Positions 2,856-14,225 of a stretch of 14,225 nt of DNA are shown piece by piece. This DNA is from a virus (Duplodnaviria > Heunggongvirae > Uroviricota > Caudoviricetes), in IMG/VR virus record IMGVR_UViG_2606217174_000013, positions 1 through 14,225 of that record; one strand, 5' to 3'. The position numbers and the translations under genes were made by a program. Below the pieces are notes generated by a model that had not been told where the DNA came from, ran no database searches, and worked only from the letters and a program-made list of their open reading frames with translations. Numbering within the stretch: position 1 is the first letter of the stretch; each line of letters opens with the position of its first letter.

Positions 2856-3074
2856 TCAAAGAGAGAGCGCCACCTGTCCTGATTTCATTGGATGCGGCTG
2901 AACCGGATTTGACTCTTTTGGCGTTGCAATCGAACGAACAAAAGTTTCATGGGTAACAAAAGTATGGCTGCAGTTAATGTTCTGGCACTGGTTGTAACGC
3001 TCTTTGGTCAATGAAGATACCTGAAAACTGCTGCGAGTATGGGCGGCACTTCCACACAGTGGGCAAATCATCAT
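2856..3074 (-). CDS. ogr: Ogr/Delta-family zinc-finger late transcription activator
   Basis: 72-aa product from the internal ATG at 3074 (MMICPLCGS...), with GGGGAGA Shine-Dalgarno 9 nt upstream; Cys-x2-Cys...Cys-x4-Cys pattern (CPLC ... CQNINC) and KERYNQCQN motif typical of P2 Ogr; position immediately after D as in P2. The ORF-track start at 3107 is probably too far upstream. Confidence 0.85.
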   Translation of the reverse strand: MMICPLCGSAAHTRSSFQVSSLTKERYNQCQNINCSHTFVTHETFVRSIATPKESNPVQPHPMKSGQVALSL

Positions 3075-3164
3075 TTTTCGAGTTCTCCCCATTTTTGCTA
3101 AATTCACAATAATGATACCGCATTATTCCATTTTGCAAACTTAAAAGTTCTCCATTGCGAAGAA

Positions 3165-4265
3165 TCATTCCATTTCGAAATCATCAATCCTCACTTCAAG
3201 CTCCAGACTGGTCGTAAAACCATTATCCGGGCTTACGGTATGCGTCAGAGTCGTAATGGTCCATTCCGCATCATCTATCGGCTGTTTAAAGCCACTGACT
3301 TTCACTGGCATTTCCGTGTAGAGATCTGCCCGCCCTTCCGCCAGTTGTAGCGAGAATGACGCAACGCCACGTTGCAGGCGTTCCCACTGCATTTTCGCTG
3401 CCCGTTCAGCGTTGCTCCGGTTGGCATAAGTGCGATTAAGTACCAGCACGTTTTCATCCGTCCCCACCAGGTAATCGCCCTGCTTCGCTTCCGGCTCTTT
3501 CTTCTGCTTCTTAGTCCTGCGCTTACGCTTCACCGTAGTGCTTTCTTTCTTCGCGGGTTCGCGGGTATGCAACCAGCTGGCAATTACCCCCGTGTAAGCT
3601 CCGCGATCTGCCAGGGTAAAGCGGTGACTGTCGCCGTCCTTACGTGTGATAGTGATCACCGGTAGTGGTTTACCGCTGGCGCTTTTACCCTGTCCCTGTC
3701 GGATGAATAACAGATTGCCATTTTTCACCGACGCAATAGCACCGTACTGGCGCGCCAACCGCATCAGAAAACTGCCGTCACTCTCATTGGTCTGGTCTAT
3801 ATGTTCCACGGGTTTATCTGACAGGTCTTTACCCAATGCCATCTTCAGTTTGTGCCGCGCAGCTATTTCCTTCACCACTTCCCCAACGGTGGTCTTGTGC
3901 CACGACTTTTCACGGCGGGTATTCAGCGTTTCACGAAAATCAGCACTTCGCGCCCGGATAGTCAGGCGATCCGGTGCGCCAGTGTGTTCAATCTCGTCCA
4001 CCGTGAATGCCCCTTTCGGGAAAAGCGGCTGCCCCTTCCAGCCCAGCGCCAGCGTAATAACCGCACCACGACGCGGCAGCACGATTTTTCCATCGGCGTC
4101 GTCCAGTTCCAGATCAAGCTGGTCTGCTTCAAAGCCCCGGTTATCCGTCAGCGTCAGACTCATCAGGCGGTTGTCCAGCACTGTGGTGATATCCTTGCCT
4201 TCAATACTGATGCTGAATGCCGGAGTTTTGTTGCCTTTGTTAAGCAGTTCAGAGCTGAAATTCAC
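3165..4265 (-). CDS. D: tail protein D (P2 gpD / late control D family)
   Basis: 366-aa ORF; N-terminal region resembles P2 gpD; start overlaps U stop; last tail gene before ogr as in P2. Confidence 0.88.
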   Translation of the reverse strand: MNFSSELLNKGNKTPAFSISIEGKDITTVLDNRLMSLTLTDNRGFEADQLDLELDDADGKIVLPRRGAVITLALGWKGQPLFPKGAFTVDEIEHTGAPDRLTIRARSADFRETLNTRREKSWHKTTVGEVVKEIAARHKLKMALGKDLSDKPVEHIDQTNESDGSFLMRLARQYGAIASVKNGNLLFIRQGQGKSASGKPLPVITITRKDGDSHRFTLADRGAYTGVIASWLHTREPAKKESTTVKRKRRTKKQKKEPEAKQGDYLVGTDENVLVLNRTYANRSNAERAAKMQWERLQRGVASFSLQLAEGRADLYTEMPVKVSGFKQPIDDAEWTITTLTHTVSPDNGFTTSLELEVRIDDFEME

Positions 4266-8829: not shown

Positions 8830-10002
8830 TTACGCGCTGACCTGGCTGGCGAAATTCACCAGGTACTGATCGGTGATGCGCTGGCGCAGCATCAGATTTT
8901 CAAGTGGCGGCACTGGCGTGTAGTCATAGTCGATAGTGAGTTTTCCGGCTTTCAGCGTGTCTTTGTCGTTCACCGACTCATCCAGCCAGCAATCACCACC
9001 AATGAGATAGCCCTGACTGACCAGGCTGCGCATTTTGGCGCGGATACCTTCGATAATGTCGCGGGCCAGCGACGGGTTAAGCGGTTTATCCACCGCCCAC
9101 ATGTGTGCTTCTGCCATCGTGTCCATCAGCACCTGCGCCGTGCGGGTGTAGTTTTCGAAGGCAAAGAGCGGGTCATCACTCAGGCAGCGGGAACCCCAGA
9201 AGCGGAAACCGTCCTTGCGCACAAGCGTGGTGACGTCGTTCTGGTTCAGCAGACCTGCATCGGTTGCCGGGTCCTGCAGATCCCAGAACACATCTGCAGA
9301 AATTCCGGTGACACCGTTCACGCCCACGTTGGACAGGCTTTTGTGCCACCCGGTCTGCTCATCAATTTTGGCACGCAGACCAAGCGCACGGGCGGTGGCA
9401 TATGCCGTTGCTTCGGCATTCAGCACCGTGTCCCAGCCAGTAAAGTCGGGCCAGATCAGCATTCCTTCGCGCTGGCTGAAGTTTTCACGATAAGTGATCG
9501 CCTCCTGTACCGTCTTGCAGCCATACGCTGACAGGTAAGCAAACCCACGCAGGCTTTGCGCCACGCTCAGCAACTCAGTCGCAACGGCTTTGTTATCGTG
9601 ACCTGGCACGCCGAGAATGCGCGGTTTAACGCCGAGCTGTGACTGGGCAGATAGCAGGGCTTTCATGCCTGTTTTTTTACCTTCAGCAGTCACAGCGCCG
9701 ATGATATTGGTCGTGGTTTCGTCTTCCGTTTCACCCTGCGGCACACGCACAACAACGGTCACGGGTTTTGCCTGATCAGCGATGGCATCCAGCGAACGGG
9801 CCAGAGTACCGGACTCACCCGCTTTACCGCTGGCAGTCAGCACATCAGTGATCAGCACGGGTTTATTAAGAGGAAACATTTTTGCATCGGCATCATCGCC
9901 CGTGCAGACCATACCCACGATGGCGGTGCTCACCGTGGTAATGGATCGGGTGCCTTCGTTGACTTCAACAACGCGCACCCCGTGGTGGTAATCCTGAGCC
10001 AT
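8830..10002 (-). CDS. FI: contractile tail sheath protein (P2 gpFI)
   Basis: 390-aa ORF with strong AGGAGG Shine-Dalgarno upstream of the ATG at 10002; first gene of the FI-FII-E-T-U-D block as in P2. Confidence 0.9.
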
Positions 10003-10078
10003 AGCGGCGAACCTCCTGATTGGATTAGGCTTCGCCCTATGTTGAAGTGATTGTGCCCGACAAACAGCTAAGTGTCGT

Positions 10079-10096
10079 TGTGCCGTTATTCACACA
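10079..10096 (-). promoter_or_regulatory. putative Ogr-dependent late promoter element (TGT-N12-ACA dyad) for the FI operon
   Basis: TGTGCCGTTATTCACACA has the TGT-N12-ACA symmetry characteristic of P2 late promoters; its centre is about 85 bp upstream of the FI start, compatible with a -55 activator site plus a roughly 30-nt leader. Confidence 0.45.
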
Positions 10097-10144
10097 AAAT
10101 GACGGTATTTGTCTACTTGCAGGGATAATCAAAATTATGCTGAT

Positions 10145-10711
10145 TCAGGGGGATTCACTGCTCTTATTTGCCGGAAATTTTCTATAAATGGTAGAAACGC
10201 CCACATCAAAAATCAGTGCAATACGCTGTCTTGATTCTCCGGCCTCGAGTAAACGTCCAATCTGTGCCCACTGTTCGGTGGTCAACTTAGGACGACGTCC
10301 ACCTACTCTGCCTTTGTCGCGAGCTGCAGCAATCCCCGCCCTGGTACGTTCAACTATCAGTTCGCGTTCCATTTCAGCCAGGGCACCCATGACATGAAAA
10401 AAGAAACGGCCCATTGGGGTACTGGTATCAATACTGTCAGTCAGGCTTCGGAAATTCACGCCACGCTGGCGCAACTCTTCTATCAGCGTAACAAGATGCC
10501 GCATACTGCGTCCCAACCTGTCCAGCTTCCAGACAACCAGCGTGTCTCCTGCCGATAGTGTCCTGAGTAGTTTTTTCAGTCCCGGTCTGTCGGACTTAGT
10601 GCCACTGATTTTGTCCTCAAAAATTCGCTCACATCCCGCGCAGTTCAGTGCATTACGTTGCAAATCGGTGTTCTGGTCATTTGTTGACACACGTACATAG
10701 CCAATAAGCAT
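10145..10711 (-). CDS. serine DNA invertase (Hin/Gin/Pin/Cin family site-specific recombinase)
   Basis: N-terminus MLIGYVRVSTNDQ with the catalytic serine in the conserved motif; resolvase-type catalytic domain; C-terminal helix-turn-helix (...VGVSTIYRKF...). Start chosen at the ATG at 10711, which has a GGGGG Shine-Dalgarno 6 nt upstream; the track start at 10717 is too close to it. Confidence 0.9.
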   Translation of the reverse strand: MLIGYVRVSTNDQNTDLQRNALNCAGCERIFEDKISGTKSDRPGLKKLLRTLSAGDTLVVWKLDRLGRSMRHLVTLIEELRQRGVNFRSLTDSIDTSTPMGRFFFHVMGALAEMERELIVERTRAGIAAARDKGRVGGRRPKLTTEQWAQIGRLLEAGESRQRIALIFDVGVSTIYRKFPANKSSESP

Positions 10712-10766
10712 GATCATCCCCCTGAATAAAAACCGGAGATGATGCCAGTTAGCTGTTACCTCTGCA

Positions 10767-10792
10767 TTTTCTTAAACGTTGGTTTGGGAGAA
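10767..10792. repeat. invertase crossover site, left (gix/hix/cix-like 26-bp site)
   Basis: TTTTCTTAAACG TT GGTTTGGGAGAA; the 14 bp at 10779-10792 (TTGGTTTGGGAGAA) are a perfect inverted copy of 12691-12704; half-sites fit the TTxTCxxAAACC pattern of Hin-family sites around a 2-bp core (10779-10780). Confidence 0.7.
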
Positions 10793-11248
10793 ACGATAAA
10801 TAAAGCCTCCGGAGCTATGCAGAAATCGGCTAATGGATCTGATATTTCTGATGTATCAGCCTTCCGAAATGCGCTCCAGTTAGGGACCGCTGCAACACGA
10901 GATGTTGGAGCAGATAATCCCTCGAAGTTACTGGATTTAGACAGCTTCAGGTCAATGATGTCAGGTAATGGCTACATCTACATTCCATGCATTGCGACGA
11001 CAGGAAACCCGGTGAAACTTATGTTGCAGTGGGGAACGGTGGCAACACAAAAGGGAGCTGATGTTGGATATGCCTTACCATTTGCTTTTCCCTATGCAGG
11101 CTTGTTTGCGACCGGAAACCGTGGAACATCTGGCTACAATGCCGCGATGAATGTGCGTATTGCCAGCAGAACGCATATCAGTATTCAGAACTGGTCGCCA
11201 TCCGGAGAGGGCACCGAAGATTGTTGTTTTATCGCGCTGGGGTATTAA
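10781..11248 (+). CDS. silent alternative tail-fibre C-terminal (receptor-binding) cassette; promoterless, expressed only after inversion fuses it to the constant part of H
   Basis: Open frame running in-frame through the crossover site (…VGLGE TINKAS…) to a TAA stop at 11246-11248. The track start at 10739 lies outside the invertible segment and is probably not a real start. About 150 aa, no obvious similarity to the current H C-terminus. Confidence 0.65.
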   Translation, partial: GLGETINKASGAMQKSANGSDISDVSAFRNALQLGTAATRDVGADNPSKLLDLDSFRSMMSGNGYIYIPCIATTGNPVKLMLQWGTVATQKGADVGYALPFAFPYAGLFATGNRGTSGYNAAMNVRIASRTHISIQNWSPSGEGTEDCCFIALGY

Positions 11249-11250
11249 GA

Positions 11251-11667
11251 ATGAATAAATTTTATAAAGGCTCTTTCTATCCGGAAGCACTAAAAGATGT
11301 ATATATCAGCGCCGGTTCATGGCCTGAAAATGGCGCTGATGTTGATGATGAAACAATGGCAATTTACACAGGCGTAGCGCCAGAAGGCAAAACGCTGGGG
11401 GCTGATAAAAATGGTAATCCTGCGTGGATTGATATCCCGCCACTCTCCGCTGAACAACAGATTATTCTGGCTGAACAGAAAAGAACGGTATTGCGTTCTA
11501 TGGCTGATAAGGAAATAGTCTGGAGACAGGATGCTTTTGATGCGGAAATCGCGACGGCAGAAGAAACCGCCGCGTTATCTGAATGGAAAAAATACCGGGT
11601 CTTGCTGATGCGCGTTGATACATCAAATCCCGTCTGGCCTACGCCTCCGGGGGAGCAGGCCAATTGA
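11251..11667 (+). CDS. alternative tail fibre assembly chaperone (Tfa; U'-like)
   Basis: 138-aa product from the ATG at 11251 (MNKFYKGSFYPEA...), 2 nt after the alternative fibre cassette stop; C-terminal ...DTSNPVWPTPPGEQAN resembles the C-terminus of the G product. Confidence 0.8.
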   Translation: MNKFYKGSFYPEALKDVYISAGSWPENGADVDDETMAIYTGVAPEGKTLGADKNGNPAWIDIPPLSAEQQIILAEQKRTVLRSMADKEIVWRQDAFDAEIATAEETAALSEWKKYRVLLMRVDTSNPVWPTPPGEQAN

Positions 11668-12241
11668 TATCCGGCGCGGTGCTGGTATCAGTTGCCGTCA
11701 CCGCGTCAATGTAATCCAGCACAGCGTTAAGTCGGGTGTTTTCTGTCTGCGTCAGCTTCCGCCCGGTCTGCAATTTCAGTTGAATCAGACTAATGGAAGC
11801 CATTGCAGTATCAATCAGTGACTGACGCTGTGCTTCTGCCGCGCCTACTGCGGCACTATGCTGTGCCTCAGTATCTGTCACCCATTTCTCACCATCCCAT
11901 TTATCGTATGGCGTTAACGGTGCGAGAGTGGTTGTATTATCAGGGTAATCACCCGGTGCTGTGATTTCTTTTGATTCTCCTGTTTCGGTGCTAAAGACAA
12001 TTTCACCGCGATGGTCCGGCACATATTCCCATGAATTTAAATCCACAGAGCGGCAAATTGAATAACCATCCTTATGTGTACCAGGAGCCTCTAAACAGGA
12101 ACATGCCGGAATACCAACACCCACAGCAAGATATTCAGATGATTCGGAAATATATTCCCGCGTATCACCATCATAGTTATAAACGATGACGTTTCCCGCC
12201 TGTACGGCAATAAGGTCATTATTTAATATCGCGTTATTCAT
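11639..12241 (-). CDS. G: tail fibre assembly chaperone (P2 gpG / Tfa), currently expressed copy
   Basis: 200-aa ORF whose ATG overlaps the H stop (TAATG); C-terminus ...TDTSTAPDINWPAPPEA; immediately downstream of the fibre gene as in P2. Confidence 0.85.
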   Translation of the reverse strand: MNNAILNNDLIAVQAGNVIVYNYDGDTREYISESSEYLAVGVGIPACSCLEAPGTHKDGYSICRSVDLNSWEYVPDHRGEIVFSTETGESKEITAPGDYPDNTTTLAPLTPYDKWDGEKWVTDTEAQHSAAVGAAEAQRQSLIDTAMASISLIQLKLQTGRKLTQTENTRLNAVLDYIDAVTATDTSTAPDINWPAPPEA

Positions 12242-13752
12242 TATGCAGCTCTCACAATATAATTGAAGGCGATGTTACGTGGGCGGGTTTCATTTCCCCC
12301 TGAAAACTCCGTTCTGTATTGACTGTTAAACCTCCCGTTAATCGCACCTTCCTGCACGGCGTTATCTGTCGACAACAGACTGTCGCCCTGTCTGTCATTT
12401 GGTTCCAGTACTGTATTATTCCACGCGTCCCATGATCGGATATAGTGACAATGACTCCCTGTCAACCATTCCTGTGCGCTTAAGATGGCTCGACCTGTAT
12501 CCACACCGCGCCCGTCATCCCAGCCACGAATAAATTCACCGCGTAAATCAGGTAATTTTCCGCTCGGGTAAGCCTTTGCCAGTTCCGGGTATTCTTCAGC
12601 AGAAAAAGCCGCACCGTTGCATTTCAGCCAGCCTGTCGGAGGTGTGACAGAAGGCCAGGGAACAGGGACACCAACGGGTAATGCTGAGCCTTCTCCCAAA
12701 CCAAGGTATGCGAGAAGACCAGCTACATCCTTTCCACTCAAATTAGTCAGCGTATTGTCCAGCGGTTGTTTACCTGACAGAGCATTCAACATTGTCGTGG
12801 CAAAGTTCGGGTCATTTCCCAGCGCCGCCGCCAGTTCGTTCAGTGTATCCAGTGCAGCAGGTGCAGAACCCACCATTGCCGCAATCGCCGATTTCACAAA
12901 AGCCGTGGTGGCAATCTGTGTATTGTTGACCGACTGTGCCGCCGTGGGGGCTGTCGGCGTCCCGGTAAGTGCAGGACTCGACAGCGGCGCTTTGAGTGCC
13001 AGCGCATCATTAATGGTGGTACTGAATTTCGGGTCATTGTTAATGGCTGCGGCTATTTCTTTCAGTGTGTCCAGCGTGGCTGGCGCACCATTAATAAGAG
13101 CCGTCAGTGCCGCCTGAACAAACGCAGTGGTCGCAACCTGCGTGGTGTTATTGCCTGCCGCAGGTGTTGGCGCTTTTGGTGTCCCGGTAAACGTCGGACT
13201 TTCTTTCTGTGCATATTGTGAATGCGGGTCCGGTGCGGCAAGGTGTTTTGCCAGCTGGTCATCCACGTACACCTTCAGCTCCAGTGCCTTGTCATCCACA
13301 TACTTGCGGGTTGCCAGCACTACGGCAGGGTCGATTTTCAGGGTGATATTGTCCGTGCTGCTGGTAATCAACACCATACGCACGGTCTGGGTGCGCCCGC
13401 TGCCTTCAGCCAGTTGCGGCTTATAGCTTTCCGGGCAGTTGCCCACGGCAATCAATGCCCCTGACTCATCAAACAGGCCCACTTCACGTATCCACCAACC
13501 GCCCTCGTTTTCAGGGATCACCTGTTCAGCAATAATCTGGCTGCTGTTCTGCAGGTCGATATAAAGCATATTCAGCGCAGCCCGGCGTTTCTCATTTACC
13601 AGTGCCGTCTGCTTTGCGTCCGGCGTTGGCAATACTCCGCCGCCATCGCCCACCGCCATATGGGTAATTTTTAGCGGCACACCGAGCGCGGCGGCGCTGG
13701 CAAGTTTCGCCGCGCCAATATCCGTCAGCAGGGTATAAAATTTTGTGCTCAT
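12241..13752 (-). CDS. H: tail fibre protein (P2 gpH family), current orientation
   Basis: 503-aa ORF; N-terminus MSTKF...MAVGDGGG... resembles the conserved P2 H N-terminal domain; two tandem fibre repeats in the middle; C-terminal variable domain begins at the crossover site (codons 350-354, LGLGE). Confidence 0.9.
   Translation of the reverse strand: MSTKFYTLLTDIGAAKLASAAALGVPLKITHMAVGDGGGVLPTPDAKQTALVNEKRRAALNMLYIDLQNSSQIIAEQVIPENEGGWWIREVGLFDESGALIAVGNCPESYKPQLAEGSGRTQTVRMVLITSSTDNITLKIDPAVVLATRKYVDDKALELKVYVDDQLAKHLAAPDPHSQYAQKESPTFTGTPKAPTPAAGNNTTQVATTAFVQAALTALINGAPATLDTLKEIAAAINNDPKFSTTINDALALKAPLSSPALTGTPTAPTAAQSVNNTQIATTAFVKSAIAAMVGSAPAALDTLNELAAALGNDPNFATTMLNALSGKQPLDNTLTNLSGKDVAGLLAYLGLGEGSALPVGVPVPWPSVTPPTGWLKCNGAAFSAEEYPELAKAYPSGKLPDLRGEFIRGWDDGRGVDTGRAILSAQEWLTGSHCHYIRSWDAWNNTVLEPNDRQGDSLLSTDNAVQEGAINGRFNSQYRTEFSGGNETRPRNIAFNYIVRAA
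12691..12716. repeat. invertase crossover site, right (inside H at the constant/variable junction)
   Basis: TTCTCCCAAACC AA GGTATGCGAGAA; the first 14 bp are the exact reverse complement of 10779-10792; the 2-bp core (12703-12704) falls in codon 350 of H. Confidence 0.7.
12757..13200 (-). repeat. two tandem ~222-bp (74-codon) fibre repeats within H
   Basis: H residues 185-258 and 259-332 are two copies of the pattern SP-x-TGTP-x-APT...NNT-Q-ATTAFV...AP-A-LDTL-E-AAA-NDP-F-TT..., visible as two similar DNA blocks. Confidence 0.5.
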
Positions 13753-14225
13753 GGATTCACTCTCATTGTGTCAATAACATGGACCGCCCCGCCTTCATGC
13801 GCGGTGCCACCGGAAATAATCGTTTCGTTGATATACGGATAGATCGTGATTTCTTCGCCAAGATAGCTGGCGGCTCCCACCCAATGCGGGCCGCTGGTCT
13901 GCAGATTGATGGACATGCCGATCATGTGGCGGCTACATGGTTTGGCATCGCTTATCAGTCGCTCAAGTTCCAGATAGGTATCTTCAGTGATGCCCTGGTC
14001 CTGCACGCCGATATCCAGGCGAAACGTGCCCGGTGTTTCTCCGGTCTGCCACCACTCAATAATGCGGATCAGGAATCCGAACGGTTCCACCACCCGCCGC
14101 ACGGCACTGGTGGTTCCTTTATGCTGATGAATATAAAAAGCATCCTTCACTACCTGGCGTTTGACGCTTTCTGTCCAGCCCTCGTCCCAGCGATCCACAG
14201 AGAACGCCCAGGCGAGATAAGGCAG
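13749..14225 (-). CDS. I: baseplate protein I (P2 gpI family), C-terminal part; the 5' end is outside the window
   Basis: The reading frame is open to the window edge: the track start at 14198 is a GTG and codons continue upstream of it. Stop overlaps the H start (ATGA); sits directly upstream of H as in P2. Confidence 0.75.
   Translation of the reverse strand: MPYLAWAFSVDRWDEGWTESVKRQVVKDAFYIHQHKGTTSAVRRVVEPFGFLIRIIEWWQTGETPGTFRLDIGVQDQGITEDTYLELERLISDAKPCSRHMIGMSINLQTSGPHWVGAASYLGEEITIYPYINETIISGGTAHEGGAVHVIDTMRVNP

Follow-up and report, generated by a model that had tools for sequence, protein, structure and literature searches.

Invertible segments that exchange the 3′ end of a tail-fibre gene are known from the G segment of phage Mu (gin, S/U and S′/U′), the C segment of P1 (cin) and the P segment of e14 in Escherichia coli K-12 (pinE, stfE/tfaE and tfaP/stfP). 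P2-like phages also have invertible fibre loci; these lie where P2 carries fun(Z), with the fibre genes on one side and the sheath gene FI on the other. Coexisting orientations were found by sequencing and polymerase chain reaction (PCR) for P2-like prophages of enteropathogenic E. coli (EPEC; E2348/69) and for e14 (PMC4272514), and the Z/fun hotspot of P2-like phages reportedly holds swapped fibre and tfa genes, often with an invertase and inverted neighbours (bioRxiv 10.1101/2024.10.15.618418). We analyzed a stretch of 14,225 nucleotides (nt), hereafter the window, from IMG/VR virus record IMGVR_UViG_2606217174_000013 (Caudoviricetes). With a probability of roughly 0.9, we read its positions 10145-13752 as a host-range switch with two states, driven by an invertase and placed in the tail-fibre operon of a P2-like prophage. 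The locus has the same phage family and the same place as the P2-like loci above. A switch of this type, as in Mu, P1 and e14, is already known, well understood, widely distributed and annotated, and the locus leaves current understanding unchanged.

Positions 10767-12716 of the window are a 1.9-kb invertible segment between two inverted sites of the gix/cix type, beside an intact serine invertase gene of the Gin/Cin/Pin family. The features of the locus are as follows (aa, amino acids; ORF, open reading frame).

10145..10717, minus strand: serine DNA invertase (Pfam; identity to PinE, Cin and Gin)
10622..10693, minus strand: candidate recombinational enhancer (Fis-binding region) in the 5′ end of the invertase gene (alignment with the P1 cin enhancer)
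10739..10792, plus strand: short leader ORF MMPVSCYLCIFLNVGLGE running through the left site (ORF map)
10767..10792, no strand: left crossover site of the gix/cix/pix type (central TT at 10779-10780)
10793..11248, plus strand: alternative, currently unfused tail-fibre C-terminus, 151 aa (Gp53-like_C; AlphaFold and Foldseek)
11251..11667, plus strand: chaperone of the alternative tip, 138 aa (Caudo_TAP)
11639..11667, no strand: 29-bp overlap of the 3′ ends of the convergent tfa genes (ORF map)
11639..12241, minus strand: chaperone of the active tip, 200 aa, TfaE type (Caudo_TAP; identity to e14 TfaE)
12241..12690, minus strand: active variable C-terminus of H, 149 aa (Collar; T4 gp37/gp12-like matches)
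12691..12716, no strand: right crossover site inside gene H, in codons LLAYLGLGE (central AA at 12703-12704)
12717..13752, minus strand: constant N-terminal part of H (Pfam Phage_tail_fib N-terminal, PF12571)

The locus can be described as a P segment of the e14 type on a fibre gene of the P2 type. In e14, its closest relative, the layout is the same (invertase, site, one tip and its tfa gene converging on the other tfa gene, its tip and the second site). The domains are paired in the same way (Collar in StfE, Gp53-like_C in StfP), and the chaperones have 200 and 137 aa, compared with 200 and 138 aa in the window, with the same 29-bp overlap of their genes. Both elements have the half-site TTCTCCCAAACCAA, and they share the published repeat core of e14, TTGGTTTGGGAGAAGG, but the left site of the window ends in AC, not in GG (PMC12529663). 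The constant parts differ: the window has a full P2-type gpH part (354 aa) and intact tail genes, whereas e14 has a short, lambdoid-remnant fibre stub. The gp53-like tip and the 138-aa chaperone are a different allele from stfP and tfaP of e14, with DNA homology only in the last ~33 nt. Elsewhere, three stretches are homologous to e14 DNA: the invertase gene (81% identity), tfaE together with the final 50 nt of the tip (11635-12291; 87%), and the collar domain together with the site (12479-12707; 87%). Homology is absent over 12292-12478, where the distal ~60 aa of the collar-type tip have been replaced. This interval of ~187 nt (aa ~72-133 of the variable part), with 87% identity to e14 stfE on either side, is probably the receptor-contacting, hypervariable part of the tip.

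The Mu and P1 segments share with the window homologous sites, in-frame exchange of a fibre C-terminus together with its Tfa, convergent tfa genes and the conserved Tfa motif. Their variable parts are longer, ~320-520 aa as against 150 aa in the window, and they belong to domain families other than those found here: Mu S has Gp34_trimer in its variable part (aa 210-320) and Phage_fiber_2 in its constant part, and S′ has gp37_C. The U and U′ genes of Mu lie 28 bp apart, whereas the tfa genes of the window overlap. In P1, unlike the window, cin is transcribed in the direction of the segment, and the 3′ end of cin is overlapped by cixL. One of the EPEC loci is described as having three repeats and four variants, compared with the two sites of the window.

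Crossover sites, invertase and natural inversion

A repeat search returned a single outstanding inverted pair, 10767-10792 and 12691-12716, in which 21 of 26 nt are complementary and the arms are separated by 1,898 nt. Exactly two copies of the half-site TTCTCCCAAACCAASGT are present in the window, one per strand, as compared with 0.06 on average in shuffled sequences. Both sites align base for base with gix, cix and the e14 sites, and the central dinucleotide is AA/TT in both. The half-site TTCTCCCAAACCAACGT of the left site is identical to the e14 site on the stfE side. A first-pass annotation, made from the letters and ORFs of the window alone, had put the two tips and their chaperones at 10781-12690, within a few bases of the segment set by the sites. 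We also considered a third crossover site, as in multi-inversion systems such as Min or the EPEC locus; this was rejected for the window, where only two sites were detected at three or fewer mismatches. An adjacent invertase gene, an inverted pair of sites, one site inside a fibre ORF and one tfa gene per tip, all characteristic of the Gin/Cin/Pin type, were thus found together.

The invertase has a Pfam Resolvase domain (7e-53) and a C-terminal HTH_7 domain (1e-15). Over its full length it is 85.6% identical in amino acid sequence to PinE of e14, 78% to Cin of P1 and 74% to Gin of Mu. It contains the catalytic-serine motif MLIGYVRVSTNDQ, and the active-site serine is seen in YVRVSTNDQ. Its true start is probably the ATG at 10711, which gives 188 aa; the RefSeq homologue is annotated with this shorter start.

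The interval 10622-10693 can be aligned with nt 19-90 of the cin gene of P1, which are annotated as an enhancer; the comparison is confounded by the conservation of the coding sequence. The same coding constraint bears on the identities, which are 56 of 72 positions with cin, 53 of 72 with gin and 61 of 72 with pinE. Two G-N13-C 15-mers stand at the same positions as in gin and pinE, again within coding-conserved sequence. These likenesses suggest a candidate enhancer in the 5′ coding region of the invertase gene and a dependence of inversion on Fis. A hairpin resembling a terminator, followed by a run of T, was detected on the minus strand (10731-10750) between the left site and the start of the invertase gene. 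It matches the consensus only weakly (6 pairs, of which 3 are G-C). Such a hairpin could keep the late fibre transcript from reading through into the invertase gene.

When the segment was inverted in silico by cutting at the central dinucleotides, H became an uninterrupted, in-frame ORF of 505 aa (H′) with the junction ...LLAYLGLGE|TINKASG.... This arrangement is present in nature. E. coli ES1 has a similar prophage with the segment flipped, in which a 505-aa H′ is annotated, followed by a 138-aa Tfa, and a collar fragment lies beside the recombinase gene. The silent cassette is therefore not degraded. For a census of orientations, the native arrangement and the in silico inverted arrangement were used as queries. 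Among complete E. coli genomes in which the segment matched end to end together with its flanks, 15 records had the orientation of the window and 6 had the flipped one.

An exact inversion is seen between AF43 and AF51, two E. coli isolates of a single UK series of rectal swabs. Their loci of 18,053 bp differ only between the sites, where the 1,898 bp of one isolate are the exact reverse complement of those of the other; after flipping, there were 0 mismatches. Near-identical copies of the segment thus invert precisely at these sites in natural isolates, which are distinct from the source strain itself.

The first 2620 nt of the window are chromosomal (grxA, ybjM and ybjL). The rest belongs to a P2-like prophage, whose right arm lies on the minus strand in the order ogr, D, U, the tape measure gene T, E/E′, the tube gene FII, the sheath gene FI, the recombinase gene (10145-10717) and the invertible region. 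After that region come the tail-fibre gene H (12241-13752, minus strand) and then a partial baseplate gene I. The gene order I-H-tfa, followed by invertase-FI-FII-E-T-U-D-ogr, is that of P2. All 10 ORFs for tail, fibre, chaperone and invertase proteins in the window are full length. E. coli chromosomes match the whole window at up to 97.6% identity over 97% of its length, and the prophage adjoins ybjL in an E. coli-type chromosome.

Fibre tips and chaperones of the two cassettes

In its present state, H encodes 503 aa, of which the N-terminal 354 are constant and the last 149 (GSALPVG... to the stop codon) are variable. The N-terminus (aa 1-150) matches PF12571, the P2 gpH-type baseplate attachment domain (1e-63, 214 bits). 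The constant part also holds shaft repeats. Shaft residues 184-340 (12733-13203 in the window) are 80% identical to aa 256-412 of P1 S, so that fibre shafts, too, are common to P2-like and P1-like phages. A direct repeat in the shaft (12944-12978 and 13166-13200, 222 nt apart) encodes the motif ...ATTAFV...APA(T/A)LDTL(K/N)E(I/L)AAA....

The active tip matches the Pfam Collar family (PF07484; 3.8e-15, 56 bits against a cut-off of 24). It also matches the tip of T4 gp37 (PDB 2XGF; E 8e-18), including the C-terminal strand NIAFNYIVR, as well as PDB 9CUY (6e-16) and short fibres of the gp12 type. The two histidines of its HxH motif, H80 and H82, are invariant in 24 homologues, and the tip is 60% identical to e14 StfE. 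By these matches it resembles a Collar domain joined to a tip like that of T4 gp37 and gp12.

The alternative tip, 151 aa from TINKASG... to the stop codon, matches Gp53-like_C (PF21882; 8e-9, 36.4 bits against a cut-off of 24.9). Its AlphaFold model has a predicted local distance difference test score (pLDDT) of 85 and shows three short helices followed by a beta domain of eight strands. In a Foldseek search, the top four matches were C-terminal domains of R1 and R2 pyocin fibres (6CT8, 6CL6, 6CXB and 6CL5), with E values of 2.7e-6 to 3.4e-5 and a probability of 1.0. This tip is thus predicted to fold as a beta-sandwich like the "foot" of the R-pyocin fibre. The likeness is one of predicted fold: identity to the pyocin C-terminal domain (PDB 6CL5/6CL6) is only ~21%, and a phmmer comparison with 4MTM gave a weak match (E 0.13). 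R-type pyocins are contractile, phage-tail-like particles linked to P2 tails. Pyocin loci, unlike the window, have no inversion system.

No relationship between the two tips was detected. BLASTP of one against the other gave E=13, and neither tip matched the Pfam family of the other (Collar or Gp53-like_C) even at E<=10. A profile-profile comparison of the two families by hhalign gave a probability of 0.12% (E 0.48). For this comparison we used an alignment of 24 collar-type sequences and 30 diverse gp53-like sequences from an exhaustive HMMER search of representative sequences; a first search for gp53-like homologues had returned almost only proteins of >=95% identity, unfit for a profile. 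Hidden homology between the tips was rejected on all three comparisons. The results support an assignment of the tips to different structural classes, for the active tip by sequence and for the alternative tip by a sequence match and the AlphaFold model. From these unrelated folds we infer that the two orientations provide for different surface receptors and host ranges.

The first-pass annotation had proposed two C-termini of about 150 aa each, one in use and one silent, without detectable similarity, and had asked how they compare with known fibre tips. The lengths and the lack of similarity agree with our measurements, and the comparison led to T4 gp37/gp12 for one tip and to the R1/R2 pyocin fibre for the other. 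That annotation had gone on to claim two different receptors, which the tip folds suggest; the remainder of its core reading (unrelated current and silent C-termini, cognate Tfas and a foreign cassette) is supported. Its description of the cassettes as head-to-head was mistaken: they face inward and their 3′ ends meet, so that they are tail-to-tail.

In the orientation of the window, the alternative tip belongs to an unfused ORF (10739-11248) of 169 aa, consisting of an 18-aa leader and the gp53-like domain. The ORF starts with ATGATG, 28 nt outside the crossover site, and overlaps the divergent control region of the invertase gene. Because the unfused cassette has its own ATGATG, annotation pipelines call a free-standing 169-aa protein; in RefSeq the homologue appears as a free-standing 'gp53-like domain-containing protein'. 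An NCBI (National Center for Biotechnology Information) record names a fragment of 99% identity 'alternative C-terminus of phage tail fiber protein, fused to tail fiber protein by inversion'. Leaders comparable to 10739-10792 are found elsewhere: the stfE leader of e14 is MPFACYFFIFINVGLGE, and Mu also has an ATG there (Mup52).

Each tip is followed by its own tfa gene, as had been proposed. Both products match Caudo_TAP (PF02413): the 138-aa protein at 1.7e-30 and the 200-aa protein at 3.9e-33, with scores of 106 and 115 bits, respectively, against a cut-off of 22.1. The C-terminal half of the 138-aa chaperone matches Mu U (PDB 5YVQ_B; 1.5e-8) and P2 G. Its gene starts with the ATG at 11251 and not, as first annotated, with the TTG at 11221. 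The 200-aa chaperone is 84.5% identical to e14 TfaE over all 200 aa. The ATG of its gene overlaps the stop codon of H (TAATG), which suggests coupled translation of the two.

According to the current model of Tfa proteins, a variable N-terminal domain binds the fibre and the C-terminal domain is conserved (PMC9608196, summarising North et al. 2019). By this model, each chaperone would be specific for its own tip. When aa 38-90 of the 200-aa Tfa (11972-12130) were compared with aa 4-62 of the variable part of H (12505-12681, within Collar), identity was 27% over 64 aa (E 0.015, in a single comparison). This similarity could be due to chance or to the chaperone mimicking part of its client.

The ORF map confirmed that the tfa genes (11251-11667, plus strand; 11639-12241, minus strand) converge and overlap by 29 bp. 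The same overlap is present in e14 (tfaP/tfaE) and in a P1-like plasmid. A bidirectional terminator at the overlap was considered and rejected, as RNA folds of 11610-11700 on the two strands were no better than those of shuffled sequences (z -0.34 and -0.70). The shared C-terminal motif, first written as DTS-x-P-x-WP-x-PP, fits the 138-aa protein (DTSNPVWPTPP), whereas the 200-aa protein reads DTSTAPDINWPAPP, with three extra residues. In the wider form D-T-[SA]...WPxxP, it is common to all six chaperones compared, including Mu U and U′ and e14 TfaP and TfaE. The motif is a hallmark of the Tfa family, and both it and the 29-bp overlap are family traits and not peculiarities of this locus.

Proposed switch and rival explanations

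In the proposed switch, the invertase would bring together the two 26-bp sites, of which one lies immediately beside the invertase gene and the other within H, probably with the help of Fis bound to the enhancer in its own 5′ coding region. It would cut at the central AA/TT dinucleotides and rotate the 1.9-kb segment. In the present orientation, late transcription of H would yield the 354-aa constant N-terminus with the Collar/gp37-like tip, and the 200-aa, TfaE-type chaperone would be made by coupled translation. After inversion, the same promoter and N-terminus would be joined in frame to the gp53/R-pyocin-like tip, followed by the 138-aa chaperone. The variable N-terminal domain of each chaperone would fit its own tip, and the conserved C-terminal domain, which ends with DTS...WPxPP, would do a common assembly job. 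A population of lysogens may then release two kinds of virions that adsorb to different receptors, a form of host-range bet-hedging.

Several observations weigh against this reading. The AlphaFold monomer of the active tip has a pLDDT of only 54, with only the collar domain confident; a gp37-like tip, built as a needle of three intertwined chains, would be expected to score this low, but since the model is poor beyond the collar, the fold class is based on sequence matches alone. The difference in receptor specificity, likewise, is drawn from the tip folds. The enhancer assignment is inseparable from coding conservation. A promoter scan gave no sigma-70-like promoter for the invertase gene, a result that is uninformative rather than negative. 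Finally, the window holds only the right arm of the prophage, which bears on inducibility and virion production.

The partial view of the prophage would also fit a fossil, that is, a defective prophage in which the segment no longer flips or flips to no effect. The element most closely related to the segment, e14, is itself defective, and its stfE is marked as a pseudogene in K-12. However, the ten tail, fibre, chaperone and invertase ORFs are full length, both sites keep the same central dinucleotide, near-identical cassettes occur in both orientations, and P2-like phage records with this arrangement exist in a phage collection. As the ORFs are intact and the exact flip between AF43 and AF51 shows recent activity, we regard a fossil as very improbable.

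A second alternative starts from the unfused ORF. The invertase-proximal cassette may not be silent: ORF 10739-11248, perhaps with its chaperone, could be expressed in the lysogen and mask a surface receptor, and inversion would control anti-phage defence or superinfection exclusion. The e14 protein StfE2, in which the stfE leader is joined to the gp53-like C-terminus of StfP, reportedly blocks adsorption of T2 when produced, in dependence on P-segment inversion (PMC12529663). The window is in the equivalent state, with its gp53-like domain proximal to the invertase, an ATGATG start of its own and a leader that has a counterpart in e14. However, the StfE2 result comes from plasmid over-expression, and the gp53-like domain of the window is distant from StfP (28% over 54 aa, E 0.033). 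The GGAG lies directly against the first ATG of the ORF, with no spacer, so that the Shine-Dalgarno spacing is poor, and a sigma-70 scan showed no promoter-like site upstream on the plus strand, although this result is uninformative rather than negative. The overlap of the leader with the crossover site and with the divergent invertase control region could account for its conservation. For tail genes that are all open reading frames, plain phage function suffices as an explanation.

The host-protective reading is rated low because the domains are distant, no promoter-like site was seen and the Shine-Dalgarno spacing is poor. That the lysogen makes this protein as a receptor coat or mask, and that the flip would thereby also toggle protection of the host from adsorption, seems to us distinctly unlikely; that exclusion is what the inversion controls is slightly less likely again. 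If it were true, the fibre switches of P2-like prophages would be dual-purpose, serving phage host range and host exclusion. Under the two-state host-range switch that we prefer, the 169-aa 'gp53-like domain-containing protein' and the 503-aa 'phage tail protein' of current annotation are two states of one gene, and a prediction of host range for this prophage must weigh both tips.

Mosaicism and spread of the cassette

The cassette region had been noted as AT-rich and taken as a sign of mosaic acquisition, and both points held up. The G+C fraction is 0.482 in the invertible segment, compared with 0.552 in the constant part of H and 0.548 in the tail genes, a deficit of ~6 standard errors for 1.9 kb. 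Between the window and ES1, the segment (10776-12707) is 99.8% identical and the flanks (10000-10792 and 12691-13800) are 94.7% identical, so the cassette has passed between diverged P2-like prophages since the split of their backbones. Copies of the cassette also occur in P1-like plasmids and in a second P2-like backbone, and e14 has part of it. A mosaic, foreign origin of the cassette is supported by its lower G+C fraction, by the difference in identity between segment and flanks, and by its presence in these other elements.

The second backbone is that of AF43 and AF51. Their prophage adjoins trhP and encodes an H of 429/431 aa and a T of 815 aa, compared with 503 and 1025 aa in the window. 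As the two prophages differ, the cassette serves at least two P2-like backbones. The locus illustrates how receptor-binding modules move as cassettes of tip and chaperone among P2-like, P1-like and lambdoid elements.

One joint of this mosaic could be located. The stretch of DNA homology to e14 has its edge at 11635, exactly on the TGGCCT (Trp-Pro) codons for the WPxPP motif of the 138-aa chaperone, so that the conserved Tfa C-terminus coincides with a mosaic joint. The 16-mer TGGCCTACGCCTCCGG, in the region 11635-11667, is identical in the window, e14 and a P1-like plasmid, and the 29-bp overlap travels with the TfaE-type gene. From these alignments, the conserved motif looks like a recombination joint for swapping modules of chaperone and tip.

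The P1-like phage-plasmid NZ_CP086493 (90 kb) has the same pair of cassettes at 91% identity. Beside its invertase gene is a third collar-type C-terminus, 77% identical to 12478-12707 of the window. The plasmid also has a frameshifted fragment of a second recombinase gene. The layout (locus positions 3072-3500 and 1995-2172) is of the multi-inversion kind, like that of Min or the three-repeat EPEC locus. At >=97% identity, both types of tip were also found at the ends of fibre proteins of ~250 aa, which have a third kind of constant N-terminus and are perhaps short fibres like those of e14.

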